Source: an uncultured archaeon
Lineage (GTDB): Archaea > Iainarchaeota > Iainarchaeia > Iainarchaeales > 0-14-0-20-30-16
Length of the DNA stretch: 64,000 nucleotides
Reading direction: 5' to 3'
Assembly (NCBI GenBank): GCA_964595665.1
Contig: CAZQQS010000001.1
Span: 138-64,137 of the forward strand
Below, in pieces: positions 14,077 through 52,612 of the stretch. Each line of letters starts with the position of its first letter. Position 1 is the first letter of the stretch. A program made the translations under genes and the position numbers. Under the pieces are notes generated by a model. That model saw nothing but the letters and a program-made list of their open reading frames with translations, did no database searches and was not told the origin of the DNA.

Positions 14077-14292
14077 TTCGTTATGTTAATTTTACTTTCT
14101 TAACTCTACATTTATAAACCTTTCTGTATGTAAATATATTATTAATATTTGAGTTGGGACTCAGATATGTTTGTCGATTTCTTGATTTCAAGTAATTTTG
14201 GATTAAAATTATAATGTTAAAATAACTGTGCTAATTAATTTAGCAAATACAAAAAAGTAATTAAAATGTATAAATGATGAAAAGGTGTAATA

Positions 14293-16380: not shown

Positions 16381-17100
16381 GTGAAGAGAATGAAGACACA
16401 AAGACGAGGAAAGGGTTCTCCAAGATATACTGCTAATAATGAGTCAGTAGGAAAGATATGTTATTCTTTTAATTATACTCAAAATGCAATTTCAGGGGAA
16501 ATAACAGATATACTACATAACGTAGGAAAATCTGCTCCATTAGCAAAAATTGTTTTAGAAAATAATACTTCATTTTTTATTCCCGCTGGAGAAGGTTTCT
16601 TCGTAGGTTTAAAAATAAGTGCTGGATCTGGCGCTAACTTAAATTTAGGTAGTATTTTACCTATTGGTCAAGTAAAACCCGGAACTCCCGTATATAATAT
16701 TGAAAGTATTCCTGGTGATGGGGGCTCATTTTTTAGAGCTGGAGGTTCATTTGGTGAAGTAATAACTTCAGATGACTCTGGTGTTTATATTAAAATGAAA
16801 TCAGGAGTAAAAAGAAAAATTGATCCTAAAAGTTTATGTACTGTAGGTATAGTTTCTAATGGTGGAAGAACTATTAAACCATTTTATAAAGCTGGAAATA
16901 AGCATCACGCTATGAAAGCTAAAGGTGGAAGAATTTATCCTAGAGTAAGAGGTTATGCAATGAACGCAGTAGATCATCCTCACGGAGGCTCGGGACACAA
17001 TTCTCCGGGTAGACAAAAACCTGTTTCTAAGAAATTTGGTGCTCCTGGTCAAAAAGCTGGATTTATTGGTGCAAAGCAAACTGGAAGAAAGAAGAAGTGA
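16381..17100 (+). CDS. rpl2: ribosomal protein uL2
   Basis: HPHGGSGHNSPGRQ motif. Confidence 0.95.
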   Translation: MKRMKTQRRGKGSPRYTANNESVGKICYSFNYTQNAISGEITDILHNVGKSAPLAKIVLENNTSFFIPAGEGFFVGLKISAGSGANLNLGSILPIGQVKPGTPVYNIESIPGDGGSFFRAGGSFGEVITSDDSGVYIKMKSGVKRKIDPKSLCTVGIVSNGGRTIKPFYKAGNKHHAMKAKGGRIYPRVRGYAMNAVDHPHGGSGHNSPGRQKPVSKKFGAPGQKAGFIGAKQTGRKKK

Positions 17101-17106
17101 TACTAT

Positions 17107-17178
17107 ATGGCTCAGTCAATAATTTTTGAAAACAGTAAAATTAATGACAGTTCCATAAAATTTAAAAGGTGAATATTT
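17107..17178 (+). promoter_or_regulatory. copy A (diverged) of the ~75-bp intergenic element upstream of rps19
   Basis: tggctcagtcaataatttttgaaaacagtaaaattaatgacagttccataaaatttaaaaggtga; AT-rich TATA-like core; 22-codon uORF. Confidence 0.45.
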
Positions 17179-17574
17179 ATGGCTAAGGAATTTACTTATA
17201 GAGGTTTAAGTTGGGAAGAAGTTTTAAAATTAAAACCAACTGAATTAGAAAATGTTTTGGATGCAAGAGCAAGAAGAACTTTAAAAAGAGCTAAAGGCTT
17301 AGATAAAAGAGTTGTAAAAGCTATTGCTGAAAATACAGATGGTAAAGAAAGTTTTAAACCAGTTAAAACTCATAAAAGAGAAATATTAATAACTCCAGAT
17401 ATGGTTGGATTAAGATTTGCAGTTTATACTGGTAAAGAATTTATTACTTTAGGTATAACTAAAGAAATGATTGGTTTTTACTTAGGTGAATTTGTAGAAA
17501 CAAGAAAAAGACCTAAACATAGTAAAGCTGGAATTGGTGCAACTAAATCATCAAAGCATGTAGGTAAGAAGTAG
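17179..17574 (+). CDS. rps19: ribosomal protein uS19
   Basis: similarity, synteny. Confidence 0.9.
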   Translation: MAKEFTYRGLSWEEVLKLKPTELENVLDARARRTLKRAKGLDKRVVKAIAENTDGKESFKPVKTHKREILITPDMVGLRFAVYTGKEFITLGITKEMIGFYLGEFVETRKRPKHSKAGIGATKSSKHVGKK

Positions 17575-17582
17575 GTGTGATT

Positions 17583-18329
17583 ATGGAATATTACAAAATT
17601 AAAGATAAAGACGCTGTAGCAAAATCTTTTAATTGCCCTATCTCTTTTAAATTTTCTGTTGAAATGGCAAGAGAAGTTAAAAGTATGACTTACGAAAAAG
17701 CAATTAAGTTTTTAGAAGATGTAATTGCATTAAAAAGACCTTTACAATTAAAAAGATATAATAGAGATGTAGCTCATAGAAAAGGAAAAATTGGAGAAGT
17801 TAAATCTGGTAGATTCCCTGTAAAAGTTGCACAATATTTTAAAAAGGTTTTAGAAATTGCAAAAGCTAATGCAGATTATAAAGGATTAGATTCAAGTAAA
17901 AAAGATTTGATAGTTAAAGGTGCAGTTGTATCTCAAGGTGTAAAAAGATATAGTTATCAAACACAAGGAAAAAGAAGATTAAGAAGAGATCAAACTACTA
18001 ATATTGAAATAGTATTAACACAACAAGGTAAATTTGTTAAAAAAGCTGAAAAGAAAATAGCCAGTGCTTCTTTAGAATCAAAAGATTCAAAAAAATCACA
18101 GGTTGTTGAAAGCTCATCTAAAGATGCCGTTTCAACACAAGAAAAAAAAATTGTTGATGTAACACAAGATAAAAAATCTGTTGAAGTTAAAGAAGTAAAA
18201 GAAGTTAAAAAAGAAACAAAAAAAGCCAGTTCAACTTTAGAATCTAAAGATTCAAAAGCTAAACAGGTTGTTGAAAGTTCTTCTAAAAAAGAAGCCGTTT
18301 CAACACAAGAGAAGAAAGGTAAAAAGTGA
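17583..18329 (+). CDS. rpl22: ribosomal protein uL22 with ~95-aa C-terminal extension carrying two copies of a repeated Ser/Lys/Glu-rich module
   Basis: uL22 core to ~aa 150; tail ASASLESKDSKKSQVVESSSKDAVSTQEKK repeated twice. ORF-track start 17577 is GTG; ATG 17583 is likely. Confidence 0.85.
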   Translation: MEYYKIKDKDAVAKSFNCPISFKFSVEMAREVKSMTYEKAIKFLEDVIALKRPLQLKRYNRDVAHRKGKIGEVKSGRFPVKVAQYFKKVLEIAKANADYKGLDSSKKDLIVKGAVVSQGVKRYSYQTQGKRRLRRDQTTNIEIVLTQQGKFVKKAEKKIASASLESKDSKKSQVVESSSKDAVSTQEKKIVDVTQDKKSVEVKEVKEVKKETKKASSTLESKDSKAKQVVESSSKKEAVSTQEKKGKK

Positions 18330-18334
18330 TTTTA

Positions 18335-19330
18335 ATGATTGAGAAATTTTTCGTGAAACAAAGATTTAAGAAATTAGATTTAGAAAAATTCTTTGCAAAA
18401 AGATTTTCAAAAGCTGGATTTAATAGTTTAGAAATTGTTAAAACTCCATTATCTACAAGATTAGTAGTTTCTGTTGCAAAACCAGGAATAGCTATTGGAT
18501 ATAGTGGAAAATCAATAAAAACTATTGGAAGTATTTTAGAAGATAAATTTGGAATAAAAAATCCACATATAGAAGTTAAAAGTGTTGAAGATCCAGATTA
18601 TAATGTAAAATATATTGTTCAAAATATAGTTAGAGATTTAGAAAAAGGAATTAATTGGAAACAAGTTGCTTTTAGAGTAGTTAGAAGTTTATCTGATTTG
18701 CCAATTATGGGTTTTGAATTAATCTTTAAAGGAAAAATGATGTCTAAAGGTGGAAGAAAACAAAAATATAGATTTATTTCTGGATATTTAAAAACTATTG
18801 GAGATCAAACAAAATTAGTTAAATTTGCAATGGCTTCTGCATCAACAAAATCAGGAAGTATTGGAGTAAGATTAAAATTAGTTCCTCCTAATGTAATGTT
18901 CCCAGATAAAGTTGGAGAAAAAGAAATTAAAGAAGCTTTAGAAAGAATGAAAACAAAAGTTGTTATAGAAAAAATAGAAGATGGTAAAATAATAAAAGTT
19001 GAAGAAAAAGATATTAAAGAAATTAAAGCTGAAGTTAAAGTAGAAAAAAAAGCTGTTGAAGTTAAAGCAGTTAAAGAAGTAAAAGAAAAAAAGGTTACTG
19101 AAAAGAAAGCCAGTTCAACTTTAGAATCTAAAGATTCAAAAGCTAAACAGGTTGTTGAAAGCTCATCTAAAGATGCCGTTTCAACACAAGAAAAAGAAGT
19201 AAAAGAAAAAAAACCAAAAGTAAAAAAAGTAACTGAAAAAAAAGCCAATTTAGATTCAAAATCTAAACAGGTTGTTGAAAGCTCATCTAAAGATGCCGTT
19301 TCAACACAAGAAAAAGAGAGTGATAATTAA
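18335..19330 (+). CDS. rps3: ribosomal protein uS3 (KH domain) with ~130-aa Lys/Glu-rich C-terminal extension carrying two copies of the same module
   Basis: uS3 core; tail ASSTLESKDSKAKQVVESSSKDAVSTQEK repeated twice; ATG 18335 preferred over GTG 18326. Confidence 0.85.
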   Translation: MIEKFFVKQRFKKLDLEKFFAKRFSKAGFNSLEIVKTPLSTRLVVSVAKPGIAIGYSGKSIKTIGSILEDKFGIKNPHIEVKSVEDPDYNVKYIVQNIVRDLEKGINWKQVAFRVVRSLSDLPIMGFELIFKGKMMSKGGRKQKYRFISGYLKTIGDQTKLVKFAMASASTKSGSIGVRLKLVPPNVMFPDKVGEKEIKEALERMKTKVVIEKIEDGKIIKVEEKDIKEIKAEVKVEKKAVEVKAVKEVKEKKVTEKKASSTLESKDSKAKQVVESSSKDAVSTQEKEVKEKKPKVKKVTEKKANLDSKSKQVVESSSKDAVSTQEKESDN

Positions 19331-19602
19331 TGACTAAAACAGCAAAAAAATATAGAGAATTAAGTATTACTGAATTAAAAGATAAAGTTAAAGAATTAAA
19401 AGAAAATTATTCTAAAGAAATTGTTAAAACAAAAACTGGTGCAAATAAAGAAAAAGCTTTTAATTTAAGAAAAGCAAAAAAAGAAATTGCTACAGTATTA
19501 ACAATTGCAAGAGAAAAAGAAATTAAACATGAAGAAGATAAATTAAAACCAAAAGTTAAGGTTGTAAAAGAAGTAAAAGAAAAGAAAGTTAAAAAAAAAT
19601 AA
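19330..19602 (+). CDS. rpl29: ribosomal protein uL29 with Lys-rich C-terminal extension
   Basis: similarity, synteny. Confidence 0.85.
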   Translation: MTKTAKKYRELSITELKDKVKELKENYSKEIVKTKTGANKEKAFNLRKAKKEIATVLTIAREKEIKHEEDKLKPKVKVVKEVKEKKVKKK

Positions 19603-19614
19603 GGGGTTTATGAA

Positions 19615-19911
19615 ATGGTAGATATTTGTAATATCTGTGGTTTGCCGAAAGACATCTGCGTATGTCAGAAAATGAATACAGAGCAAATTAAAATTTATGT
19701 TGTGGAAAAACACGTCAAAGGACCAATGTTTGTAACAATTGTAAATGGTTTAGATGATCTAAACGAAATAGAGAACATGAATAAAGAGTTAAAGAAAAAG
19801 TTAGCTTGTGGTGGAACTTTAAAAAACAAAGATATTGTTTTGCAAGGAAAACATAAGAAAAAAGTAATTCTTTATTTAAAGGGGAAAGGATATGATACAT
19901 TTCATCTCTAA
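19615..19911 (+). CDS. translation initiation factor SUI1 (aIF1)
   Basis: VTIVNGLDD...KKLACGGTLKN SUI1 core; conserved position. Confidence 0.8.
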   Translation: MVDICNICGLPKDICVCQKMNTEQIKIYVVEKHVKGPMFVTIVNGLDDLNEIENMNKELKKKLACGGTLKNKDIVLQGKHKKKVILYLKGKGYDTFHL

Positions 19912-20149
19912 AGATGTTTTAACTAAAGTTTTTTTAGGAAAAAAAATAAATGTTTTTTTTGCTAGCGATAAAACAAAACAAGTTAAAGGCATTGTACAAA
20001 AAGAGACAAAAAATATGTTTTATATTAAAACAGATAAAGGATTAAAAAAAATTCCTAAAAAGGAAATTTTCTTTTATTTGGATGATGAAAAAGTTGATGG
20101 AAAAACAATATGTTATAGATTAGCAGATAGAATAAAAAAATATGCTTAG
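19892..20149 (+). CDS. RNase P protein component Rpp29 (Pop4)
   Basis: conserved position between SUI1 and uS17; Rpp29-like fold signature. Confidence 0.65.
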   Translation: MIHFISKDVLTKVFLGKKINVFFASDKTKQVKGIVQKETKNMFYIKTDKGLKKIPKKEIFFYLDDEKVDGKTICYRLADRIKKYA

Positions 20150-20159
20150 GTGATTAAAT

Positions 20160-20417
20160 ATGGTTGAATACCCAATAAGAGGAATTGTATTTGAAGGTGA
20201 AGTTGTAAGACAAAAAACTCCAAAAACAATTGTTGTAAAAAGAAATATTGTTACATATATTAAAAAGTATGAAAGAAATTTATTAAAAACTAAAAAGTAT
20301 GCTGTGCATTTGCCAGAAAACATGACTGTAAAAGTTGGAGATAAAGTTTTAGTTGGAGAAACTAGAAAAATAAGTAAGACTAAGAATTTAGTTGTTATTG
20401 ATGCTAATAAAAGGTGA
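20160..20417 (+). CDS. rps17: ribosomal protein uS17
   Basis: similarity, synteny. Confidence 0.9.
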   Translation: MVEYPIRGIVFEGEVVRQKTPKTIVVKRNIVTYIKKYERNLLKTKKYAVHLPENMTVKVGDKVLVGETRKISKTKNLVVIDANKR

Positions 20418-20422
20418 ATAAA

Positions 20423-20821
20423 ATGAGAGCGATGAGTTCAAAATCTATTAAAGGATTAATATTAAATTCCACTATGGAATGTACTGACAATACTGGTGCA
20501 AAAGAAGTATATATTATTAGTGTATTTGGACATAAAACAAGAAAAAAGCAAAATCCAAGTTCTGGTATAGGTGATTTAGTAAATATAGTTGTATCAAAAG
20601 GTAAACCAGAAATGAAAAAGAAATTATTTAGAGCAGTTATTGTAAGAAGTAAAAGTGGATTAAAAAGAGCTAACGGTGTTAAATTAAAATTTGATACTAA
20701 TGCTTGTGTTTTAGTAGATAATGAAGGCGTTCCAAAATCAACTGAAGTAAAAGGTGCAGTTCCAAGAGAAGTTGGTGAAAGATTTCCAAAAATAGTTGGT
20801 AGAGCTGCATACGTAGTATAG
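20423..20821 (+). CDS. rpl14: ribosomal protein uL14
   Basis: similarity; ORF-track start 20414 is GTG in the SD; ATG 20423 is likely. Confidence 0.9.
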   Translation: MRAMSSKSIKGLILNSTMECTDNTGAKEVYIISVFGHKTRKKQNPSSGIGDLVNIVVSKGKPEMKKKLFRAVIVRSKSGLKRANGVKLKFDTNACVLVDNEGVPKSTEVKGAVPREVGERFPKIVGRAAYVV

Positions 20822-20831
20822 AGGGATATTT

Positions 20832-20904
20832 ATGGTTCAGTTAAAAGTTTTTAAAAACAGTAAAACTTATAACAGTCCCACAAACATATAAAAGGTGAAT
20901 ATTT
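20832..20904 (+). promoter_or_regulatory. copy B of the ~75-bp intergenic element upstream of rpl24
   Basis: atggttcagttaaaagtttttaaaaacagtaaaacttataacagtcccacaaacatataaaaggtgaatattt; near-identical to copies C and D. Confidence 0.5.
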
Positions 20905-21255
20905 ATGGTTACAAAAAACGCATCTAAAAATAGAGTTAGACAATTGAATGCACCAAAACATACTTTAAGAAAAAGTATTGCATCACATGTATCTAAAGAA
21001 TTAAGAGCAAAATATAATATAAGAGCAATATCTATTAGAAAAGGGGATGTTGTTACAATTATGACTGGTAAATTTGCAAAAAAATCTGGAAAAGTTACTA
21101 CTGTAGATTCTACAGGATTTATATTTATAGAAAATATTCAATTGAATAAAAAAGATGGAAAAGTTGTTCCAATAAAAATAAATCCATCAAATGTAATTAT
21201 TACTGAATTATATAAAGATGATGAAAAAAGATTTAAACATATTAAAGGTGAATAA
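20905..21255 (+). CDS. rpl24: ribosomal protein uL24 (KOW)
   Basis: KOW motif GDVVTIMTGKFAKKSGKV. Confidence 0.9.
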   Translation: MVTKNASKNRVRQLNAPKHTLRKSIASHVSKELRAKYNIRAISIRKGDVVTIMTGKFAKKSGKVTTVDSTGFIFIENIQLNKKDGKVVPIKINPSNVIITELYKDDEKRFKHIKGE

Positions 21256-21257
21256 AT

Positions 21258-21959
21258 ATGGCAAATAAAGGTAATAGTAATCGCCAAAAAAGAGTGAGTT
21301 ACGCTGGTAAAGCAAGAATAAGTAGAAAAGAACATCATTGGACATTTAATGCAAAACCTGGAGCACACCCAAAAAATGAGAGTGCTTGTTTTGGTTTGAT
21401 AATTAGAGATGTATTAAATTTAGCTAATAATACTAAAGAAGTAAAATATATTTTAAATAACAAAAATTGTTTTGTTAATGGTGTTAGAGTAAAAGAACAT
21501 AGATTGCCTGTAGGTTTATTTGATATTTTATCATTTAAAGATATTAAAAAATATAGAGTATTATTAACACATAAAGATAAAATTATTTTAAAAGAAGTTA
21601 ATGAAAAGGAAAATTTAATTCCTTGTAGTGTAAAAACTAAAAAACCACATGCAAAAGACAAATTTGTTTTGGGTTTTTCAAATGGATTTACATCTATTGT
21701 AAAAGATACTAAAATTAATGTTGGAGATTCTGTATTGTATAATATAGATAAAAAAACATTTGAAGATGTAGTTGTTAAACAACCAGGTGCAAGAGTATAT
21801 ATTATTGGTGGACCGCACGTAAGTTCTTTTGGTATATTGAAAAATATTATTAAAGGAGATTTAAAAAAATCAAGTGAAGTTACAGTTGATTGTAGTGGTA
21901 AAGAATTGAAAACAATGGAAAAATATATTTTTGTAATTCCTGAAAAATTGAATTTATAA
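21258..21959 (+). CDS. rps4e: ribosomal protein eS4
   Basis: similarity, synteny. Confidence 0.9.
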   Translation: MANKGNSNRQKRVSYAGKARISRKEHHWTFNAKPGAHPKNESACFGLIIRDVLNLANNTKEVKYILNNKNCFVNGVRVKEHRLPVGLFDILSFKDIKKYRVLLTHKDKIILKEVNEKENLIPCSVKTKKPHAKDKFVLGFSNGFTSIVKDTKINVGDSVLYNIDKKTFEDVVVKQPGARVYIIGGPHVSSFGILKNIIKGDLKKSSEVTVDCSGKELKTMEKYIFVIPEKLNL

Positions 21960-21960
21960 A

Positions 21961-22488
21961 GTGATACTTATGGCTGAAAAACAAAATCCAATGAAAGAAA
22001 TTTCTTTAGAAAAAGTTGTGTTGCATATTTGTACTGGAGAAACTGGTGTAAAATTAGATAACGCTAAAAAAATATTAAATTTGTTAACTAATAAAAAACC
22101 TGTTGAAACAAAATCAAAAACTAAATTGCCAAAATGGGGTTTACGTCCTGGATTAGCAATTGGTGCAAAAGTAACTTTAAGAAATAAACAAGCTTATGAA
22201 TTTTTAAAAAGAGCTTTGGAAGCAAAATCATTTACATTAAATAAAAGATGTATTGATAAAACAGGAAATTTTGCATTTGGTATTCCAGAATATATTGATA
22301 TTAAAGGAATGAAATATGATCCTAAAATGGGAGTTTTTGGATTTGATGTTATTTCATCTTTAAAGAGAAATGGTTTTAGAATTAAATATAGAGCTGAAAA
22401 AAGAATGAAATTAACACCTGCTTTAAAAATTAATAAAGAAGAAGCAGAAGAATTCTTGAAGAAAGAATTTAATATAAAATTTAATTGA
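21961..22488 (+). CDS. rpl5: ribosomal protein uL5
   Basis: similarity, synteny. Confidence 0.9.
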   Translation: MILMAEKQNPMKEISLEKVVLHICTGETGVKLDNAKKILNLLTNKKPVETKSKTKLPKWGLRPGLAIGAKVTLRNKQAYEFLKRALEAKSFTLNKRCIDKTGNFAFGIPEYIDIKGMKYDPKMGVFGFDVISSLKRNGFRIKYRAEKRMKLTPALKINKEEAEEFLKKEFNIKFN

Positions 22489-22505
22489 TGGTGATATGCT
22501 TGAAA

Positions 22506-22637
22506 ATGAAAGATGATAAGAAGCTAACTTGTAAGATTTGCGGATGTGGAAAGGCAATCGTTAGAAAATATGACTTAAATGTTTGTCGTAGATGCTTTAA
22601 AGACCATGCCGAAGAGTTAGGCTTTCATAAATATTAG
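22506..22637 (+). CDS. rps14: ribosomal protein uS14 (zinc-binding type Z), 43 aa, absent from ORF track
   Basis: hand translation MKDDKKLTCKICGCGKAIVRKYDLNVCRRCFKDHAEELGFHKY; CxxC...CxxC; canonical position between uL5 and uS8. Confidence 0.85.
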   Translation: MKDDKKLTCKICGCGKAIVRKYDLNVCRRCFKDHAEELGFHKY

Positions 22638-22645
22638 GTGATTAT

Positions 22646-23035
22646 ATGAGTAGAGATCCTTATACTGATGCATTAACTCACATAAAAAATAGTGATTTTG
22701 TTGCAAAACAAAGTTGTTCTATTAATATATCGAGTACTTTGCTTTTGAAAACTTTAGAGATATTAAAAGCTGAAAAATATATTGATAATTTTGAGTTAAA
22801 AACAAAAAGTAATAAACAAGAATTGACTGTAAAGTTAAATGGTTCATTAACAAATTTAAAATCTGTTAAACCAAGATATCCAATCGGTTATAACGATATG
22901 GAAAAATATGAAAAAAGATATTTACCATCAAGAAATGTTGGACTATTAATTTTATCTACACCACAAGGTTTGCGAACACATGTTGAAGCAAAAAAAGAAA
23001 AGATTGGTGGAAGATTAATAGCATTTGTATATTAG
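22646..23035 (+). CDS. rps8: ribosomal protein uS8
   Basis: similarity, synteny. Confidence 0.9.
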   Translation: MSRDPYTDALTHIKNSDFVAKQSCSINISSTLLLKTLEILKAEKYIDNFELKTKSNKQELTVKLNGSLTNLKSVKPRYPIGYNDMEKYEKRYLPSRNVGLLILSTPQGLRTHVEAKKEKIGGRLIAFVY

Positions 23036-23044
23036 GTGACATTT

Positions 23045-23575
23045 ATGAAATTAGAAATCAATATACCAAAAGGAACTAATGTTACAAAAGATAATAATTA
23101 TATTGTTGTTAAAGGTAAATTAGGAGAATTAAGAAAAGAGTTCAAAACTAAATTAATTAATATTAATATAGATTCTGATAAATTGGTTTTGGAAAGTGTT
23201 AATGATAGAACAAAAACAGTTGCAATTTTGAATACTGTAAATTCTATAATAAGTAACATGATTTCTGGAACTGAGAAAAAATATGTTTATACTTTAAGAG
23301 GAGTATATTCACACTTCCCATTAACATTAGCTGTTAAAGGAAAAACATTTGTAATAAATAATTATTTGGGTGAAAAAAAATCAAGAGTTATTGATATTCC
23401 AGATAATGTTGAGATAACTGTTAAAGGAAAAGATGTTATTGTAAAATCAATTGATAAAAATTTAGCAGGAACTGTTGCTGGATTAATTGAAAATAGTGTA
23501 AAGCCAAAAAATAGAGATAGAAGAATATTTCAAGATGGCGTATATATAATTACAAAAGGTGTGCAAGATGAGTAA
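23045..23575 (+). CDS. rpl6: ribosomal protein uL6
   Basis: similarity; ATG 23045 preferred to GTG 23036. Confidence 0.9.
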   Translation: MKLEINIPKGTNVTKDNNYIVVKGKLGELRKEFKTKLININIDSDKLVLESVNDRTKTVAILNTVNSIISNMISGTEKKYVYTLRGVYSHFPLTLAVKGKTFVINNYLGEKKSRVIDIPDNVEITVKGKDVIVKSIDKNLAGTVAGLIENSVKPKNRDRRIFQDGVYIITKGVQDE

Positions 23576-23927
23576 TGAAAAAAAAGTACCTACATTTAGA
23601 GGAAGATTTGGAACACGAAGTAAAAGAAAGAAATCTATTGCTAAATGGGATAAATGGAGATTTCCTAGAGGAATTGATATTACTTTCAAGAAAGGAGATA
23701 ATGAAAATCCAAAAATTGGTTATGGTACTAAGAAAGAAGATAGAGATTTACATCCTTCTGGAAGAACTGAAGTATATATTAGAAATTTAGATATTTTAAA
23801 AAATCACGTTAAAGAAAATAAAGATGCAAATAAATATATTTATAGATTAGCAGGAAATTTAGGTGCTAAAAAAAGATTAGATATAAAAGAATTTGCAAAA
23901 ACTGTAAAAATAAGAATAATAAATTAA
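23559..23927 (+). CDS. rpl32e: ribosomal protein eL32
   Basis: similarity, synteny. Confidence 0.85.
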   Translation: MCKMSNEKKVPTFRGRFGTRSKRKKSIAKWDKWRFPRGIDITFKKGDNENPKIGYGTKKEDRDLHPSGRTEVYIRNLDILKNHVKENKDANKYIYRLAGNLGAKKRLDIKEFAKTVKIRIIN

Positions 23928-23937
23928 AGGTGTTGGT

Positions 23938-24369
23938 ATGAACATTAAATCTGCAAAGAGAATAGTTGCGAAAAAATTAAATGTTGGAAAATCTAAAATT
24001 AAAATAAATAATGATTCGCAAAAGAAAATTAAAGAAGCAATTACAAGTGCTGATTTAGAAACTTTGGTACAAGATGGATCTTTTAAAAAGAAAGGTCAAA
24101 GTCAAAGTAGAGGTAGAGCTCGAGTATTATTGGAAAAGAAAAAGAAAGGTAGAAGAACTGGCCAAGGTACAAGAAGAGGAAAAGCAAATGCAAGAGCAAG
24201 TACTCATGATGCTTGGATAAAAAAAGTAAGAGCTCAAAGAAAATATATTTTAGAATTATTAACTAATACAAAAGTTGATAAAAAACAATATAGAGATTTG
24301 TACAACAAAGTTAAAGGTGGATTCTTTAGAAGTAAAAGCCACATAGATTCATATCTGAGTAAAAAATAG
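23938..24369 (+). CDS. rpl19e: ribosomal protein eL19
   Basis: similarity, synteny. Confidence 0.85.
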   Translation: MNIKSAKRIVAKKLNVGKSKIKINNDSQKKIKEAITSADLETLVQDGSFKKKGQSQSRGRARVLLEKKKKGRRTGQGTRRGKANARASTHDAWIKKVRAQRKYILELLTNTKVDKKQYRDLYNKVKGGFFRSKSHIDSYLSKK

Positions 24370-24378
24370 GGGATTTTT

Positions 24379-24858
24379 ATGGCAATATTTAGAAGACGAA
24401 AAGAACTAAAAACAAACTATGATAAAAGATTTTCATTGTTAAAATCTAGGACTAACAGATTGGTTTTGAGAATAACAAATCAATATGTTTGGGCACAATA
24501 TGTTGTACACGATACAAAAGGGGATATAAACAAATTAAGTTTAGTTTCAAAATCTTTGAAAGATTTTGGTTGGACTTTAGGATTTAAATCTTTGCCAGCA
24601 AGTTATCTTTCAGGATATTTGTTTGGTAAAAAAGCTTTAGAAGCAAAATTATCTAAAGATATGATTTTAGATTTAGGTTTACAAAAATCTTTTAAACAAG
24701 GTAGGATTTATTCATTTGTAAAAGGTGCAATAGATTCTGGATTAAATATCCCTGTTGAAAAAGAAGTTTTGCCAACTCAAGAAAGACTTGAAGGAAAACA
24801 TATTAAATCTGAAGCTTTGTTTAAGAAAGTAAAAGATGCAATTGATGCTAAAAAGTGA
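24379..24858 (+). CDS. rpl18: ribosomal protein uL18
   Basis: similarity, synteny. Confidence 0.85.
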   Translation: MAIFRRRKELKTNYDKRFSLLKSRTNRLVLRITNQYVWAQYVVHDTKGDINKLSLVSKSLKDFGWTLGFKSLPASYLSGYLFGKKALEAKLSKDMILDLGLQKSFKQGRIYSFVKGAIDSGLNIPVEKEVLPTQERLEGKHIKSEALFKKVKDAIDAKK

Positions 24859-24863
24859 TATAT

Positions 24864-25619
24864 ATGGTTGATAAATTTAAATTAGCTAAAAAGAAATCAG
24901 TAAAGAGAGCTGAATATGGTAGAGTATCTGAAGAAAAAACTACTAAAATGGAAACAAAAGAAGCAATTCAAGATGCTGTTCATAAAAAAAGAGCAAAAAG
25001 ATCTTTATTTAATGTTGATATTTCAACATGGGAACCTAAGACTTTATTGGGTAAAAAAGTAAAAGAAGGCGAAATAACTAGCTTGGATGAAATTTTTGAT
25101 AAAAATTTAAAAATTTTAGAACCAGAAATAATAGACTTTTTTATACCTGATATAAGAGAAAAATTAATGGATACTACAAAAACATCATACGTTAGAATGT
25201 CTGGTAGAAAATATAACTACAGATGTGTTGTATTATTAGGTGATGGAGTAAAATTCATTGGTATGGGAATAGGTAAAGATAAAGATAAATGGGTTTCAGC
25301 AACAAAAGCTGCAAGAATAGCTAGATTAAATTTATTAAGAATAAAAAAAGGTTGTGGAAGTTGGGAATGTTTATGTGGTACAGAACACACAGTACCTTTT
25401 GAAGTTCAAGGAAAAACTGGTGCTGCAAGAATTACATTAATTCCAGCTCCTTTAGGAACAGGATTAGTAATAAGTGATTCTTTAAAACCAATATTGGAAT
25501 TTGTAGGAATAAAAGATGTTTGGAGTAGAACTGAAGGTGAAACAGGTACTATGATAAATAGTATACAAGCCACAATAGATGCTTTAAGCGAAACTAATAA
25601 AAAATTAAAAGTTAGGTGA
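24864..25619 (+). CDS. rps5: ribosomal protein uS5
   Basis: similarity; ATG 24864 preferred to GTG 24855. Confidence 0.9.
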   Translation: MVDKFKLAKKKSVKRAEYGRVSEEKTTKMETKEAIQDAVHKKRAKRSLFNVDISTWEPKTLLGKKVKEGEITSLDEIFDKNLKILEPEIIDFFIPDIREKLMDTTKTSYVRMSGRKYNYRCVVLLGDGVKFIGMGIGKDKDKWVSATKAARIARLNLLRIKKGCGSWECLCGTEHTVPFEVQGKTGAARITLIPAPLGTGLVISDSLKPILEFVGIKDVWSRTEGETGTMINSIQATIDALSETNKKLKVR

Positions 25620-25625
25620 TATTAA

Positions 25626-26093
25626 ATGTCTGAATTAATTGCAATCGTAAAAATAAGAGGTAGTGTTGGAATAAAAACTACTTTAAAAGATACTTTATTA
25701 AAGTTAAGATTGAGTGAAAATAATCATTGTACTATTTTTGAGAATTCAAAAGTTTTACAAGGAATGTTATTTAAAGTTAAGGATTATATTTCTTATGGTA
25801 CAATAGATAAAGAAACATTAAAAGCTTTGATTGCAAAAAGAGGAAGATTAGTTGGCGATAAAAGAATTAATGCTGAATTTTTAAAAGAAAAAAATTTAAC
25901 TATGGATAAATTTGTTGAAATGTTTATTGAAGATCCTAAGAAAGCATATACTTTAGGTTTGAAAAGAGTTTTTAGATTAAGTCCGCCATCAAAAGGTTTT
26001 GAAAGAAAAGGAATAAAAACTCCATTTGCACTAGGTGGTGCTTTAGGAGATAGAAAAGAAAAAATAAATGTTCTTTTGAAGAAAATGATGTGA
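25626..26093 (+). CDS. rpl30: ribosomal protein uL30
   Basis: similarity, synteny. Confidence 0.9.
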   Translation: MSELIAIVKIRGSVGIKTTLKDTLLKLRLSENNHCTIFENSKVLQGMLFKVKDYISYGTIDKETLKALIAKRGRLVGDKRINAEFLKEKNLTMDKFVEMFIEDPKKAYTLGLKRVFRLSPPSKGFERKGIKTPFALGGALGDRKEKINVLLKKMM

Positions 26094-26098
26094 TATTT

Positions 26099-26169
26099 AT
26101 GGTTCAGTTAAAAGTTTTTAAAAACAGTAAAACTTATAACAGTCCCATAAAAAATAAATGGTGATATTT
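26099..26169 (+). promoter_or_regulatory. copy C of the ~75-bp intergenic element upstream of rpl15
   Basis: same element; flanked on both sides by GTGATATTTATGG. Confidence 0.5.
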
Positions 26170-26580
26170 ATGGTTGTTAGAAAAGAAAAAAGATGTAAAA
26201 AAAGATTAGGTACTAGAACAAGAGGTGCTGGTAATACTGAAAACAGAAGAGGTGCTGGAAGTAAAGGTGGAAAAGGTAATACTGGAAAATTCGGTCATAA
26301 AAAACATGAATTTTTTGATGTTATAGGTCACAAAGTAAAAAATAAAGCATTTGTTGAAACTGTTGGAATTAATTTCAATCATATTAATAATTATATTGAG
26401 AATTTAATCTTACAAGGTAAAAAAGAACCTTTTGAATTAGATTTCAAACATAAAGATTTGAAAAAATATAATAAAGTTTTATCAAAAGGAAAATTGAAAT
26501 ATAATGTAATATTAAAAAATGTAATATTGACTGAAAGAGCTAAAAAACAAGTTGAATCTAAAGGGGGTTCATTTGAATGA
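26170..26580 (+). CDS. rpl15: ribosomal protein uL15
   Basis: Gly/Arg-rich N-terminus. ATG 26170 with SD GGTGA at 26160 is preferred to ATG 26158, which lies inside the repeat element. Confidence 0.85.
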   Translation: MVVRKEKRCKKRLGTRTRGAGNTENRRGAGSKGGKGNTGKFGHKKHEFFDVIGHKVKNKAFVETVGINFNHINNYIENLILQGKKEPFELDFKHKDLKKYNKVLSKGKLKYNVILKNVILTERAKKQVESKGGSFE

Positions 26581-27980
26581 GTTTTGCAAATATAATTGCA
26601 GGAATATCTCAATTTATTCCAAGTATTCAAGCTCCTAAGGAAAAACCTATTTTGTCTCAAAGATTAAAATACAGTTTTTTAGTATTGTTAATATTCTTTG
26701 TTTTAGGTACAATTCCTTTATTTGGATTGGCTGGAAGTGCTGGTGACAGTTTAGCAATGTATCAATTGTTATTAGCAAGTAATATTGGAACATTATTAAC
26801 TGTTGGAATTGGTCCTATAGTTGTAGCATCAATTATATTACAATTATTAGTTGGTACTGGAATATGGGGTTTAGATTTTGGAAATCCAAATGATAGAGCT
26901 TTATTTTCAAGTACTCAAAAAATATTGGCAATTATATTGTCTTTTTTAGAAGCATTTATTTATGTAAGTGTTGGATTCTTAAAAACAGAAACTGCATTAT
27001 TTACTTTCTTAGTAGTTTTGCAAGTTGCATTAGGTTCAATTACTTTATTATACTTAGATGAAGTTATACAAAAATATGGTATTGGTTCAGGAATAAGTTT
27101 ATTTATTGCTGGAGGAGTAGCTTCTGGAATATTCTGGGTAATATTTAATCCAGTAAGTTCAATACAACAAGGTTTACAAATATTAAGTTCTGGTGCAACA
27201 TTTAGTTTAGCTACTGGTGCTGGTTTATTGTGGACTTTTTTTGCAAATGTAGGTCAAAATTTATATACTGCAGTAGTACAAAATATCTTCCCAATATTGT
27301 TTGCAATAATAGTATTTTTCATAGTAATTTATTTCTCAGGAATACATGTAAATATTCCATTAACTATGGGTAAGAGTTCGCAGTTAGGAAGATATCCTGT
27401 AAAGTTTTTTTATGTTAGTAACTTGCCAGTAATTTTGGCAGCAGCATTATTTGCAAATATAACTTTATTATATCATGTAGTGGAAGCAAAATCAATTCCA
27501 GTATTAACTACAATTTTATTTTATATTAGTAAATATACTACATCTCCAAATAATTTAGTAGAAAATGTTTTTTTACAAGGTTTTTCTGGAATGTGGGGAC
27601 AAATATTACAAGCAATAATTTATTTGATAATATTTGCATTTGTTTGTGTATTCTTTGGAATCATGTGGGTTAAAATGGCTGGACAAGATTCAGAAAGTGT
27701 TGCAAAACAATTACAAAAAAGTGGAATGTTTTTACCAGGATTTAGAAGAGATCCTAGAGTTATAAAAACAGTTTTAGATAGATATATTCCTACTATAACA
27801 ATATTAGGTGCAATATCAGTAGCTCTATTAGCGGGATTAGCAAGTATTACTGGTGCTGTAGGAACAGGAATGGGAATATTGTTAACTGTTGATATTGTAT
27901 ATAGATTATATGAAGAAATTGCTAAAGAACAAGTAAGTACAGATTCATCATTATTGGCAAAATTAGTTGCAAAAAGGTGA
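26577..27980 (+). CDS. secY: preprotein translocase subunit SecY
   Basis: 10-TM SecY architecture, conserved position after uL15. Confidence 0.9.
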   Translation: MSFANIIAGISQFIPSIQAPKEKPILSQRLKYSFLVLLIFFVLGTIPLFGLAGSAGDSLAMYQLLLASNIGTLLTVGIGPIVVASIILQLLVGTGIWGLDFGNPNDRALFSSTQKILAIILSFLEAFIYVSVGFLKTETALFTFLVVLQVALGSITLLYLDEVIQKYGIGSGISLFIAGGVASGIFWVIFNPVSSIQQGLQILSSGATFSLATGAGLLWTFFANVGQNLYTAVVQNIFPILFAIIVFFIVIYFSGIHVNIPLTMGKSSQLGRYPVKFFYVSNLPVILAAALFANITLLYHVVEAKSIPVLTTILFYISKYTTSPNNLVENVFLQGFSGMWGQILQAIIYLIIFAFVCVFFGIMWVKMAGQDSESVAKQLQKSGMFLPGFRRDPRVIKTVLDRYIPTITILGAISVALLAGLASITGAVGTGMGILLTVDIVYRLYEEIAKEQVSTDSSLLAKLVAKR

Positions 27981-27984
27981 ATGT

Positions 27985-28434
27985 ATGGAATGGCTAAATG
28001 CATTTATAGTTGGAACTATTGCAATTGTTTATTCTGCATTTTTATTTTTATATCAAAGATATCAAGATAAAAAAAATAATACTAAAGAAAAAAATTTAAA
28101 ATCAAAAGAATTACAAAAACAAATCTCAGATTTGTATAAAAACAAAGATGTTAAAGATCCAGAAGTTATGAAAGAAATTCAAGCTTTACAAAAAGAAATG
28201 ATGAGCATTAGTATAGATATGATGAAATCACAATTTAAAGGTATGATTTGGATTATGCTTTTAGGATTAATTGTATTATCTGTAATAGGATTATTCCAAG
28301 ATGCGAAATTTCCTGTTGGAAGTTTTTGGATATTTTCACAAGTGTTATCTTGGTTTATATTAATATCTTTAGTTGCAAATTTGTTATACAAAGGAATATT
28401 TAAATTATTAGAAAAACAAAAATTAATTAAATGA
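27985..28434 (+). CDS. DUF106-family membrane protein (archaeal YidC/Oxa1/EMC3-like insertase)
   Basis: TM1, coiled-coil, TM2/3 layout. Conserved post-secY position, but no adenylate kinase gene lies between. ATG 27985 preferred to TTG 27967. Confidence 0.6.
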   Translation: MEWLNAFIVGTIAIVYSAFLFLYQRYQDKKNNTKEKNLKSKELQKQISDLYKNKDVKDPEVMKEIQALQKEMMSISIDMMKSQFKGMIWIMLLGLIVLSVIGLFQDAKFPVGSFWIFSQVLSWFILISLVANLLYKGIFKLLEKQKLIK

Positions 28435-28452
28435 TGTTTAAAAGGTGAAATT

Positions 28453-28525
28453 ATGGTTCAGTTAAAAGTTTTTAAAAACAGTAAAACTTATAACAGTCCC
28501 ACAAATATGTAAAAGGTGAATATTT
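28453..28525 (+). promoter_or_regulatory. copy D of the ~75-bp intergenic element upstream of rpl34e
   Basis: same element; flanked by GGTGAA(A/T)ATT(T)ATGGTT on both sides. Confidence 0.5.
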
Positions 28526-28849
28526 ATGGTTACTCCAGCACAGAGAAATATGAAAAAGAAATTTGTAAAAGTTACAAAAGGTACTAAAGAAGTTAGATTT
28601 AGAGATAAATCAAAAGGTGCACATTGTGCTACATGTAAAACTGCATTACAAGGTGTTCCAAGAAATGTTGCAAAATTAGCAAAAACTGAAAAGAGACCAA
28701 GTGTTTTATTTGGTGGATTATTATGTTCTAAATGTAGAGATGAAGTTTTTGATTATGCAATTATGGTTAAATTAAATTTAGTTCCTGAAAGCGAAATTTC
28801 ATTTAAAATAAAAAAATATGTTGATCAAGCAATTTTGAAAATTGCATAG
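28526..28849 (+). CDS. rpl34e: ribosomal protein eL34
   Basis: C4 zinc ribbon CATC...CSKC; conserved position. Confidence 0.8.
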   Translation: MVTPAQRNMKKKFVKVTKGTKEVRFRDKSKGAHCATCKTALQGVPRNVAKLAKTEKRPSVLFGGLLCSKCRDEVFDYAIMVKLNLVPESEISFKIKKYVDQAILKIA

Positions 28850-28857
28850 GTGATTAT

Positions 28858-29310
28858 TTGATTGTTGTTATTGCAGGAGATGTTTCTTATAACGTAGAAC
28901 CCTTTGCTAAAAAATTAGCAATTAGTTTAGGTGCAATATATAAACAATTAGATGATGATTATTTATTAAAAAATACTGGGTTCTTTGAAGAACAAAAACA
29001 AGGTAAGATTGTATATGTTGGGCATGTAATTGCAACAAAATTACAAGTACCATGTTTTAAAATATTTTTAAAAGAATTAAAAGAAAATATTTTAAGTAGA
29101 TTAGTAAAAGAAAATAAATTATCTATTGAAGATGCAAATGAAAAATATAATTCAATAGTTAAAGAACAAAAAGAAAAAATGAATCGATTTTATGGAATCG
29201 ATATAAATAATTTAGAAGTTTATGATTTAATAATGAGAATTGATAATTTAGATCAAAAATCAATAATTAGTATTATTGAAAAGTTTATTGCAAAGCAATT
29301 TAGTGAATGA
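28858..29310 (+). CDS. cytidylate kinase-like protein with degenerate P-loop (likely non-catalytic)
   Basis: Occupies the cmk position between eL34 and eL14. N-terminus MIVVIAGDVSYNVEPFAKKLAISLG replaces the usual GxxGSGK[ST] P-loop. TTG start with SD AGGTGA. Confidence 0.5.
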   Translation: MIVVIAGDVSYNVEPFAKKLAISLGAIYKQLDDDYLLKNTGFFEEQKQGKIVYVGHVIATKLQVPCFKIFLKELKENILSRLVKENKLSIEDANEKYNSIVKEQKEKMNRFYGIDINNLEVYDLIMRIDNLDQKSIISIIEKFIAKQFSE

Positions 29311-31166: not shown

Positions 31167-32006
31167 ATGCAAGTTAAATTTTTAAAGAAAAATGGTTTTG
31201 AATATAAATTTTTATTAGAAGATACTAGAAATGATATTTTAAATGCTATTAGAAGAACTATATTATTACATGTTCCAACTTTTGCTGTAACAAAAGTTTC
31301 AATATATAAAAATGAAGGTGTAATGTTAGATGAAATGTTAGCTAGTAGATTAGGATTAGTTCCTATTTATGCTTCTGAAGTTGATGATAGTGAACACCAT
31401 TTGTATTTAAAGAAAAATAATGGTATGGTTTATTCTGGGGATATTACTACAACTGGAATATTAGAAATACCTTTAAAAAATATACCTATAACTTTATTAA
31501 AAGAGAATAAAAATTTGGAATTAGAATTAACTGTTAAAAAAGGATATGGTAAAGATCATGTTAAATTTAGTCCAGCAAATGTATATTTTAATAATTTGCC
31601 AGAATTAAAACAGAAAGGCGATGTAGATATTAAAATATGTCCAAAAAATATTTTTGAAAAAAAAGCAAATAAAATATTTTTAAAAGATCCTTATAGTTGT
31701 GATTTGTGTAGATATTGTGAAGATAAATCAAATGGAAATATACAAATATTATTAAATGATGAAAAATTTGTATTAAATATAATTCCATTTGGAAGTTTAG
31801 ATTTAAAAACTATAATTATAGAAACATATAATCATTTAAATAATGAATTAAATGAATTAAAAGCCAGTTTAAATTTAGAACCCAAAAGTTCAAAATCTAA
31901 ACAGGTTGTTGAAAGCTCTTCTGAAAAAGAAGCCATTTCAACACAACTAAAAGTTAAAGAAGTAAAAGAAAAGAAAACAACAACTAAAAAACCAAAAAAA
32001 GAATAA
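31167..32006 (+). CDS. rpoD: DNA-directed RNA polymerase subunit D (Rpo3) with Cys-cluster domain and a C-terminal copy of the SK-KQVVESSS-STQ tail module
   Basis: Rpo3 core; CDLCRYCED motif; tail PKSSKSKQVVESSSEKEAISTQLK. Confidence 0.85.
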   Translation: MQVKFLKKNGFEYKFLLEDTRNDILNAIRRTILLHVPTFAVTKVSIYKNEGVMLDEMLASRLGLVPIYASEVDDSEHHLYLKKNNGMVYSGDITTTGILEIPLKNIPITLLKENKNLELELTVKKGYGKDHVKFSPANVYFNNLPELKQKGDVDIKICPKNIFEKKANKIFLKDPYSCDLCRYCEDKSNGNIQILLNDEKFVLNIIPFGSLDLKTIIIETYNHLNNELNELKASLNLEPKSSKSKQVVESSSEKEAISTQLKVKEVKEKKTTTKKPKKE

Positions 32007-32047: not shown

Positions 32048-32130
32048 CAAATGGGCAGGGCTTAAGACCCTGTGGCGCAGGCCTTCGAGAGTTCGAACCT
32101 CTCCCCCTGCATCTACATTCTTCTGCGAAG
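32048..32130 (+). tRNA. tRNA-Leu (anticodon UAA), type II with long variable arm
   Basis: Hand-folded cloverleaf: acceptor GCAGGGG/CCCCTGC, anticodon stem CAGGG/CCCTG with loop CTTAAGA, variable arm TGGCGCAGGCCTTC, T-arm GAGAG-TTCGAAC-CTCTC, discriminator A. Confidence 0.8.
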
Positions 32131-32232
32131 TATGTAGTGTAACCCCCTAGAATGCGGGTTGTTGCTGTACTTACAGCAAAGCTTCTAAAAGAAGCATAGA
32201 AATATGATATTTATATTAGAGGATGAGATATT

Positions 32233-39252: not shown

Positions 39253-39326
39253 TTTTAGATTCTTATTTCTAAATAGATTTCAATTTCTTAAGTAAGATTT
39301 ATATATTTATAAGTTATATTAGTATA

Positions 39327-39764
39327 ATGCCACATAGAAGATTTTTTTCATTTTTAGATAAATATAAGCATGAAAATGTTGAAAATAAGATTGAAAAACC
39401 AAAATTGAGTTTGGGACAAAGATCTGCAGATGCAGTAACTGTTTTTGTAGGATCTTGGAAATTTATTATTATTACTTGTATAGTAATATTTTCTTGGATT
39501 TTGGTAAACATTTATTTTGTATTTGTTAGGTGGGATCCATATCCATTTATTTTGTTGAATTTAACATTATCTACTTTGGCAACTTTGCATACTCCTATAA
39601 TTTTAATGAGTCAAAATAGACAAGCAGAAATCGATAGAGTTACTGCTGAATATGATTATAAAGTAAACATAAAAGCAGAAAAGGAAATAAAAGATATGCA
39701 AAAAGATTTAGATCAAATAAAGGTTATGATTCAAGATTTACATTCTAACATAAAGAAAAAGTAA
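39327..39764 (+). CDS. DUF1003-family membrane protein
   Basis: WDPYPFILLNLTLS...ILMSQNRQ signature, 2 TM helices. Confidence 0.6.
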   Translation: MPHRRFFSFLDKYKHENVENKIEKPKLSLGQRSADAVTVFVGSWKFIIITCIVIFSWILVNIYFVFVRWDPYPFILLNLTLSTLATLHTPIILMSQNRQAEIDRVTAEYDYKVNIKAEKEIKDMQKDLDQIKVMIQDLHSNIKKK

Positions 39765-48026: not shown

Positions 48027-48184
48027 TATAAGAACATTTGTGGAAGTTGTTTTCTTAAAGATAAAGTTTGTAAAGGGATAGGTTTTATATATTAATTTTG
48101 TGAATAATGAAATAACATCTAAAATTAAACAGTATTTATATAATTATTTAGAATTAAAATATAATGATTATCTGAGGAATTTAA

Positions 48185-52519: not shown

Positions 52520-52524
52520 CTTTT

Positions 52525-52543: not shown

Positions 52544-52612
52544 TCAAAGCCACGACTGTGGCTTTGGTAACATCTATTTTGGTAGGGCGGCAACCTTTTT
52601 CTAAAAGGGCTC

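Follow-up and report, generated by a model that had tools for sequence, protein, structure and literature searches.

Small palindromic repeats at duplicated translation starts within the ribosomal-protein operons of Diapherotrites-like archaea

The ribosomal-protein supercluster in a 64-kb stretch of DNA from an uncultured archaeon (contig CAZQQS010000001.1, positions 138 to 64,137; hereafter the window) contains four copies of a short palindromic element, all on the + strand and all in the same orientation. The host is a Diapherotrites-like (DPANN) archaeon of about 25% GC. DPANN genomes are very small and streamlined, and few stretches of prokaryotic DNA are as conserved and compact as the ribosomal-protein supercluster. 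Our analysis suggests, with confidence somewhat better than even, that the four copies are members of a family, specific to this lineage, that consists of small, non-autonomous palindromic insertion elements, comparable to miniature inverted-repeat transposable elements (MITEs) or repetitive extragenic palindromes (REPs), that target translation-initiation regions and regenerate them. The element is interpreted as a small copied repeat because near-identical copies occur within a genome, the closest relative has empty sites, tandem expansion has occurred and the target is duplicated.

The four copies, designated A to D, each begin at the ATG of a short open reading frame (ORF), at positions 17107, 20832, 26099 and 28453, and are followed by the ATGs of the downstream genes at 17179, 20905, 26170 and 28526. 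Pfam assigns the flanking genes as follows: copy A lies between L2 and S19; copy B between L14 and L24; copy C between L30 and L15; and copy D, beyond SecY, between an EMC3/TMCO1-like gene and L34e, which is followed by cytidylate kinase. The gaps of 70-90 nucleotides (nt) at these four junctions are exceptions in the cluster, where other genes overlap or lie no more than 12 nt apart. A 47-nt core, GGTTCAGTTAAAAGTTTTTAAAAACAGTAAAACTTATAACAGTCCCA (GGTTCAGTT...CAGTCCCA), is identical in copies B, C and D (at 20834, 26101 and 28455; none expected in shuffled sequence), and copy A (17105-17187) is 66% identical to copy B over 83 nt. An nhmmer profile of the four copies matches the window four times at E <= 4e-23, with the next best match at E = 0.45, and a covariance model run with filters off gives four matches of 78-84.5 bits, with the next + strand match at 22 bits or less; its sole further matches are reverse-strand reflections of the same palindromes. 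Neither search finds a fifth copy in the window. These searches and the Pfam neighbors confirm the four copies listed in an earlier note on this DNA, which had been made from the sequence of the window, together with its description of a core shared almost base for base by three of them. The ending given there for every copy does not hold for copy C, which ends in AAATGGTGATATTTATGG rather than AAAGGTGA....

The element proper is an imperfect hairpin of about 50 nt followed by an A-rich tail. Conserved sequence is confined to the foot (AUGG-nn-CAGUUR / YAACAG-nn-CCAU), to a single unpaired A (or an A.A mismatch) located four pairs farther up the stem, and to the CCAUAAA that follows the stem; the inner stem covaries and the loop varies freely. 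For the four window copies RNAalifold predicts a hairpin of 15 pairs, three of which copy A preserves by double changes. Pairing statistics were taken from a covariance-model alignment of 24 distinct copies, where paired cells make up 84.8%, compared with 34-46% when the partners are slid by 1-3 columns. Compensatory changes occur at 8 of the 16 pairs; column 22-58, for instance, is G-C in 14 copies and A-U in 10, and column 21-59 is U-A in 20 and C-G in 4. The covariation score is 0.214, as against 0.06-0.08 for slid partners, and none of 500 shuffles attains it. In the relative L005, CAAT/ATAG replaces CAGT/ACAG, a G-C to A-U change at the hairpin foot itself. The earlier note had proposed that constraint acts on the nucleic acid rather than on the encoded peptide, and had named folding and covariation as the check; the covarying hairpin, together with a short ORF that is not conserved (see below), bears this out.

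Folded singly, the hairpins have free energies (dG) of -6.5 to -16.5 kcal/mol and z-scores of -1.3 to -5.3. When 27 copies are aligned with MAFFT alone, bulges put them out of register and RNAalifold finds no structure; as part of the inner stem stays mis-registered in the model alignment too, the pairing figures given above are conservative. The AUG of the upstream, duplicated start is base-paired with the CCAU of the foot in 20 of the 24 distinct copies (its A-U, U-A and G-C pairs are each kept in 20-21 of 24). The antisense strand folds more stably than the sense strand in 18 of 22 copies, which probably reflects the energies of A.A versus U.U mismatches, so that fold stability does not identify the functional strand; counts of G.U versus A.C pairs on the model alignment are likewise unreliable. 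Readings of the hairpin as a C/D box, a K-turn or a bulge-helix-bulge motif were dropped on inspection by eye, there being no tandem G.A pairs and no 3-nt bulges. Rfam gives no match on the elements, either at gathering score or at E <= 5.

Relatives of the host were identified through SecY, which is nearest to proteins of 'Candidatus Diapherotrites' metagenome-assembled genomes (MAGs) and metagenome contigs, at 90% identity (P0001), then 77-70%, then 65% or less. The SecY neighborhoods of nine relatives were scanned with nhmmer and the covariance model R1. Related copies were found in L002 (SecY 77%) at L2/S19, L24/S4e, L18e/L13 and EMC3/L34e, the last with an insert of about 95 nt in the hairpin loop; L005 (76%) at L24/S4e; the CG08 MAG (75%; L007/L008, L018 and L029) at L2/S19, L14/L24, EMC3/L34e, L13/S9, S7/EF-2 and one putative rpoA1/rpoA2 junction; and L032 (70%), which has 11 units in 21 kb, before S19 and at S3/L29, S14/S8, L14/L24, S13/S4, L19e/L18 (two), EMC3/L34e (two) and eno/S2 (two). 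The junction of copy A is thus also occupied in L002, CG08 (L007) and L032, and that of copy B in CG08 and L032. The additional CG08 junction lies between an 875-aa protein with the NADFDGD motif of RNA polymerase subunit A' and a 378-aa protein, and is read as rpoA1/rpoA2 from that motif. The same scans find no copy in L009, L010, L031, L033 or L001. Altogether, the family comprises 28 units at 14 kinds of junction, in ribosomal-protein, RNA-polymerase and EF-2 operons, and without exception they share the strand of the genes and immediately precede a start codon.

The exact core of the window type has no match in the genome and metagenome contig collections, and the L24 protein of the window is likewise not on record. 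An unbiased scan of 185,579 species genomes with a degenerate pattern gave true matches in the CG08 Diapherotrites MAG only, all four of them in ribosomal-protein or S7/EF-2 operons. The nine remaining matches are in line with the number due by chance (estimated at about 10), and those to viral contigs and bacterial genomes were rejected as such, as they score 26 bits or less against the model, compared with at least 50 for true copies. A match in an Aenigmatarchaeota sequence (L013) was rejected as it lacks the hairpin. A search of the literature found no account of such an element, or of any repeat that duplicates ribosome-binding sites.

Occupancy differs among close relatives in a way that indicates insertion. 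In L001, the closest relative (SecY 90%), the gaps at L30/L15 and EMC3/L34e are 10 and 19 nt, which makes them clean empty sites: pairwise alignment shows flanks about 90% identical, broken solely by insertions of 66 nt and about 74 nt in the window. Farther relatives also lack the element at L30/L15, and copy C was therefore gained in the lineage of the window. Copy D, too, looks like a gain after the split from L001, although other lineages carry elements at EMC3/L34e. Copy number differs even between strains, with three head-to-tail units at EMC3/L34e in L025, a CG08-like strain, compared with one in L007. In a neighbor-joining tree of SecY, carriers and non-carriers are interleaved within one clade, and there are no carriers among the outgroups. 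Copies of one genome resemble each other more than they resemble copies at the same junction in other genomes. In particular, copies B and D differ at two positions only, from ATGG through ATGGTTAC, and the L34e protein starts M-V-T in the window only, as against M-V-A in L001, CG08 and L032; this single nucleotide hints that copy D may have been copied from copy B through a homology-dependent tract ending in codon 3. Of the interpretations offered in the earlier note, that of a MITE-like insertion is the one that gains from the comparison of junctions it had called for, in view of the empty sites at two of the four junctions, the patchy presence of the same family among relatives and the difference in copy number between strains.

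The insertion is accompanied by duplication of the translation-initiation region. Gene starts in the window consist of GGTGA (the Shine-Dalgarno, or SD, motif), a spacer of 5-7 nt and ATG, with G as the next base at 44% of ATG starts. The start of the short ORF was compared with that of its own downstream gene at 22 junctions, over the 22 nt from -16 to +6, with partners permuted within genomes. Cognate pairs share 302 identities, compared with 275.7 expected (p = 1.5e-4), and both the SD plus spacer (p = 0.008) and codon 2 (p = 0.002) contribute; a gapped alignment of -30 to -1 alone gives p = 0.038. With the relatives added, the resemblance to a target-site duplication that had been noticed in the window thus holds statistically. 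The duplicated stretch takes in the SD, spacer, ATG and codon 2, is about 15-25 nt long and varies in length, the older copies having evidently decayed. Rare starts are duplicated as well, namely ATGAGA/ATGAGA at S14/S8, ATGCA/ATGCA at L19e/L18 and ATGT/ATGT at the rpoA junction. Exact repeats include GTGATATTTATGGTT of 15 nt (copy C), TTGATGTGATATTTATG of 17 nt (L14/L24 in CG08) and AGGAGAAATTTTTATGCA of 18 nt (L19e/L18 in L032).

At copy C, the repeat on the downstream side, AAATG-GTGATATTTATGGTT, corresponds to AAATGATGTGATATTTATGGTT on the upstream side, a sequence that takes in the final codons and stop of L30 and cannot be part of a mobile unit. Also, start regions of the type TATTTATGG preceded by an SD are rare in the window, with six at elements and two at other gene starts (30132 and 40236), and the empty sites in L001 already read (A)TTTATGGTT. 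The insertion target therefore appears, from these sequences, to be a start region of the TATTTATGG type. In L025, the internal repeats of the tandem array combine the SD of the downstream repeat with the ATGGCC of the upstream repeat.

These observations suggest how such an element may spread and be tolerated. A copy would be placed in the translation-initiation region of a gene inside a long, highly expressed information-processing operon, and the insertion would duplicate some 15-25 nt of its target, comprising SD, spacer, ATG and first codon. The downstream gene would keep an intact ribosome-binding site in an unstructured, A-rich context, and the upstream duplicate would become the start of a meaningless short ORF, its AUG paired into the hairpin foot, that always stops before the real start; stops in all three frames follow the redundant AUG. 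The element could be tolerated in the most compact operons because the downstream gene receives a complete start region and the upstream AUG is paired. Unequal recombination or slippage, acting on the duplicated initiation regions, would enlarge tandem arrays such as that of L025. Spread itself may proceed by copy-paste between similar GGTGA-TATTTATGG start regions, through homology or template switching, or by way of a hypothetical enzyme whose staggered cuts lie far apart. The identity of copies B and D through the downstream start is explained by gene conversion or template switching between similar start regions, which accounts less easily for duplication of a rare codon 2; classical cut-and-paste transposition would need a target-site duplication that varies between 15 and 25 nt. 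We infer that the element is co-transcribed and folds in the mRNA, and that it has not been selected for a function in the host but is selfish or neutral.

Duplication of the start region explains the start of the short ORF. Every unit has an SD and an ATG at its 5' foot, and in all 26 cases the short ORF ends before the real start; in the four window copies it runs for 19-21 codons and stops 5-13 nt ahead of the gene. The mini-ORF described in the earlier note is accordingly present in each copy, but it is not one peptide of 20 codons, as the C-termini differ even within the window: MVQLKVFKNSKTYNSPTNI in copy B, ...PTNM in D, ...SPIKNKW in C and MAQSIIFENSKINDSSIKFKR in A. Across the family its length ranges from 4 to 22 codons, with M-x-x-x-stop in 9 of 26; the frame at its 3' end varies between copies, and the peptide is not conserved past M-[AV]-Q-L. 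Read from the ATG, the frame crosses the hairpin without a stop in 14 of 26 units, compared with 10 and 13 for the other two frames. Since nine of the 26 stop after four codons and the ATG frame is not favored over the other two, the 19-21-codon ORFs of the window are a local accident of the subfamily, without selection for the peptide or for translation of the stem.

In two other readings the element would serve the gene behind it. A leader peptide or attenuator, that is, a translated and conserved peptide of about 20 codons regulating the downstream ribosomal-protein gene, finds some encouragement in the complete SD, ATG and open frame of all four window copies, but the variable, often truncated and unconserved ORFs of the family effectively refute it, and we consider it very improbable. 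Rather improbable, too, though less so, are internal archaeal promoters, with a TFB recognition element (BRE) and TATA box in each copy starting transcripts of the downstream genes and so punctuating the long operon. The element is indeed very AT-rich, its tail CCATAAAATTTAAAAGGTGAATATTTATG shares a geometry (an A/T box about 20-25 nt before the ATG, then an SD) with the region 5' of the first gene of the L3 operon, tgtataaatgatgaaaaggtgtaataATG, and other small repeats, such as Correia elements, bring their own promoter. However, TATA-like strings are due by chance at 25% GC, and the sequence AAAGTTTTTAAAAA, in which the earlier note saw a TATA-like core, is the top of the stem and the loop of the hairpin. 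It is not conserved in the family: other members have unrelated sequences at this position (TTTCTTTCAGAAAAATCAA, TTTCGTTTAAGCA, CTCAATAAATCA and others), and pairing alone is kept. The likely real promoters of the window, in the regions where operons start, carry canonical boxes of the TTTATATA type instead, and where relatives lack the element, the operons are fully compact and overlapping at these junctions, so that no internal promoter is needed there. Both the 20-codon upstream ORF and the TATA-like core are by-products of the anatomy of the element; the A-rich tail (CCATAAA...) may, given its geometry, have weak promoter activity.

A stronger competitor, although still an unlikely one, is a selected cis-acting RNA of the polycistronic mRNA, acting as a protein-binding, processing or stabilizing hairpin or as a translational switch, that has spread because it is useful. 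The hairpin would then play a part like that of the intercistronic expression elements of plastids or of REP hairpins in operons. In the switch form, the CCAUAAA of the foot would have two alternative partners, the upstream UUUAUGG where the short ORF starts and the downstream UUUAUGG at the real start, and translation of the upstream cistron would so be coupled to that of the next. The covarying hairpin with its conserved unpaired A's, the pairing of the upstream AUG, the sense orientation of every unit exactly at gene starts of co-regulated information-processing operons, and the minimum-free-energy folds of copies A and C, where the tail pairs alternatively with the downstream start, are all consistent with such an RNA. 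On the other hand, the occupied junctions differ among close relatives, several of which have no element at all, so that it is dispensable for every gene; the loop varies in sequence; and tail and spacer show no significant complementarity specific to cognate pairs (p = 0.055 and 0.07). The sense fold is no better than the antisense fold and hence shows no G.U signature of selection at the RNA level. Rfam offers no counterpart, and the archaeal ribosomal-protein leaders described in PMC7247131 are those of S15, eL15 and L4.

Several points nevertheless weigh against the insertion-element interpretation that we prefer. No transposase domain was found in the ten ORFs of the window that were scanned, including those beside the duplicated end of a tRNA-His gene, in a scan that was not exhaustive. 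The census of copies in the host spans the 64-kb window only. The duplication is unusually long and variable for a classical target-site duplication, and it is marginal by the gapped alignment. Strict co-orientation, sole placement at the starts of translation and transcription genes and conserved mismatches in the stem would also fit a selected regulatory RNA, and compensatory changes may reflect either selection or templated correction on a palindrome, for mobility or for the host alike. A bolder version of the insertion reading, which we regard as doubtful, is that of a mobile element homing into translation-initiation regions, with a target duplication of about 20 nt made by a mechanism unlike that of known prokaryotic transposases, and creating new short ORFs and ribosome-binding sites in the most conserved operons. 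The conserved CCATAAA of the foot has its complement in the spacer and start of the target, TTTATGG, and could guide insertion by pairing in single-stranded DNA or RNA; candidate mechanisms would include long staggered cuts as in Cas1-type integration, target-primed synthesis and template switching.

Our analysis also reveals other features of these genomes. Upstream of the L3 (14293) and L18e (32233) genes of the window (14077-14292 and 32114-32232), an A/T-rich box of TATA type lies only about 20-26 nt before the ATG, with an SD-like motif between the two, which suggests from sequence that promoter-proximal genes of the host may have very short or absent 5' leaders; intergenic regions 39253-39330 and 48027-48184 also contain strings of the TTTATATA type. 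A second small structured repeat (...CAGAAGCTCTTGC-loop-GCAAGCCGATTC...) occurs in relatives, at L002 11917-12014, L002 2597-2671 and L033 8873-8957 (- strand), with a similar motif at L007 19400-19592; these genomes therefore contain more than one family of intergenic repeats. In L002 it is nested in the hairpin loop of the element at EMC3/L34e, and the loop therefore tolerates insertions. Between L34e and cytidylate kinase (cmk), six relatives share a conserved non-coding element of about 85 nt, in which a TATA-like ATATATATAATA is accompanied by a hairpin that covaries (GTTATC-AGTACG-GATAAC), by another stem, TTTTTGGCT...GGCCAAAC, and by a T-run. The element looks like a small RNA gene and has no Rfam match at gathering score. 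Its motif is found nowhere in the window, where L34e (28526-28849) and cmk (28858-29310) are separated by 8 nt only.

In the tRNA-His region of the window (52448-52656), the 3' part of the gene plus 22 nt (44 nt in all, 52499-52542) is exactly repeated 114 nt downstream (52613-52656) and is followed by a MazF/PemK toxin gene at 52918-53289; the region may be the remnant of an integration site. An 866-aa protein encoded at 55286-57886 (- strand) contains an intein splicing domain and a LAGLIDADG domain, and the 1275-aa EF-2 of the CG08 relative (L018 2503-6330 and L029 1651-5478, both - strand) is read as intein-interrupted from its length and sequence. The L22, S3 and RNA polymerase D genes of the window (18039-19318 and 31842-32006) have long Lys/Glu-rich C-terminal extensions made of degenerate direct repeats (families D1, D3, D5 and D11). 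Coordinates of the element copies, and of the L34e/cmk element in relatives, are collected in Table 1.

Table 1. Positions of the parts of the four element copies in the window and of the L34e/cmk non-coding element in six relatives
Feature	Position	Strand	Description
Copy A upstream initiation region	17095..17112	+	SD-like GTGA overlapping the L2 stop, spacer, ATG and codon 2 (ATGGCT); start of short ORF
Copy A hairpin	17107..17156	+	diverged (AUGG..CAGUC-stem-loop-stem-GACAG..CCAU); dG -10.7 kcal/mol, z -3.1
Copy A A-rich tail and S19 initiation region	17157..17184	+	AAAAGGTGAATATTTATGGCT
Copy B upstream initiation region	20816..20837	+	GAGGGATATTTATGGTT; directly after L14 stop codon
Copy B hairpin	20832..20881	+	core as in C and D; dG -9.2 kcal/mol, z -2.6
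Copy B tail and L24 initiation region	20882..20910	+	AAAAGGTGAATATTTATGGTTAC
Copy C upstream initiation region	26083..26104	+	AAATGATGTGATATTTATGGTT; takes in the end of L30
Copy C hairpin	26099..26148	+	within the 66-nt insertion relative to L001; dG -10.4 kcal/mol, z -3.75
Copy C tail and L15 initiation region	26149..26175	+	AAATGGTGATATTTATGGTT; GTGATATTTATGGTT exactly repeats the upstream segment (15 nt)
Copy D upstream initiation region	28437..28458	+	AAAAGGTGAAATTATGGTT; after EMC3/TMCO1-like gene
Copy D hairpin	28453..28502	+	within the ~74-nt insertion relative to L001
Copy D tail and L34e initiation region	28503..28533	+	as copy B through ATGGTTAC; L001 has ATGGTTGC
L34e/cmk element, L007	12448-12575		
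L34e/cmk element, L031	6098-6212		
L34e/cmk element, L032	12384-12498		
L34e/cmk element, L002	12387-12510		
L34e/cmk element, L005	12285-12411		
L34e/cmk element, L009	12197-12312		

A dynamic repeat family in this place shows that compact ribosomal-protein operons tolerate insertions provided that the ribosome-binding site is regenerated, and an insertion mechanism specific to translation start regions may exist. Short upstream ORFs and duplicated starts can be by-products of insertion, which calls for caution in the annotation of upstream ORFs and small proteins. Should the hairpin affect translational coupling or mRNA stability, the family would provide a natural system for the tuning of operon stoichiometry in archaea. 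The element would be considerably more notable if its specificity for start regions proved to be guided by base pairing, or to reflect some other new mechanism of insertion.

Among known systems, MITEs share several properties with the element: both are short, non-coding and present in multiple copies, end in inverted repeats (here ATGG-nn-CAGTTR ... YAACAG-nn-CCAT), duplicate their target, are polymorphic for presence and absence, and occur as near-identical copies within a genome. The duplication, however, is variable and about 15-25 nt long, whereas that of MITEs is fixed at 2-10 nt; it falls on a functional signal, SD-spacer-ATG; every copy has the orientation of the genes; and no parent insertion sequence (IS) with matching ends was found in the sequences covered. 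REPs and the bacterial interspersed mosaic elements (BIMEs) built from them, with their REP-associated tyrosine transposases (RAYTs), and the ends of IS200/IS605 elements partly resemble it as imperfect palindromes of tens of nucleotides with a short conserved foot motif, conserved mismatches and a covarying stem, located inside operons and co-transcribed, as the present element probably is. REPs, however, usually lie on the 3' side of genes, oriented either way and frequently clustered, whereas here every copy immediately precedes a start codon and runs in the direction of the gene, and the foot CAGTT/AACAG with its conserved unpaired A's is unlike the GTAG motif of REPs. IS200/IS605 elements insert 3' of a fixed tetra- or pentanucleotide without target duplication, in contrast to the duplicated start regions seen here, rare codon 2 included, and no Y1 transposase was seen among the ten ORFs of the non-exhaustive domain scan.

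Other palindromic repeats also invite comparison. Enterobacterial repetitive intergenic consensus sequences (ERIC, also called intergenic repeat units or IRU) and the Correia repeat enclosed elements (CREE) of Neisseria are target-duplicating palindromic repeats in transcribed intergenic regions that form mRNA hairpins and can affect expression. They are, like the present element, small and placed between the genes of operons; they differ in duplicating a TA dinucleotide rather than a whole ribosome-binding site and start codon, in occurring in both orientations and in being bacterial. Rickettsia palindromic elements (RPEs) are selfish palindromes that insert in frame within coding sequences and are translated as part of the host protein. 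They are tolerated because their insertion, too, is compatible with translation of the host gene; the element described here lies just 5' of the coding sequence and regenerates its start.

Archaeal ribosomal-protein leaders, which stand at fixed positions (PMC7247131), are likewise structured, covarying RNAs directly 5' of ribosomal-protein genes. Such leaders, however, occupy one conserved position per operon and mimic the rRNA site of one protein, whereas the element precedes at least 14 different genes, at junctions that vary by genome, and is absent from close relatives. The intercistronic expression element (IEE) of plastids is also an element of about 50 nt between the cistrons of an operon; it is a protein-protected processing site shown experimentally (PMC2230500), whereas the present element is described from sequence. 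By analogy, then, the element would seem to work most like MITEs, or like palindromic repeats of the ERIC or Correia type, in transcribed intergenic regions.

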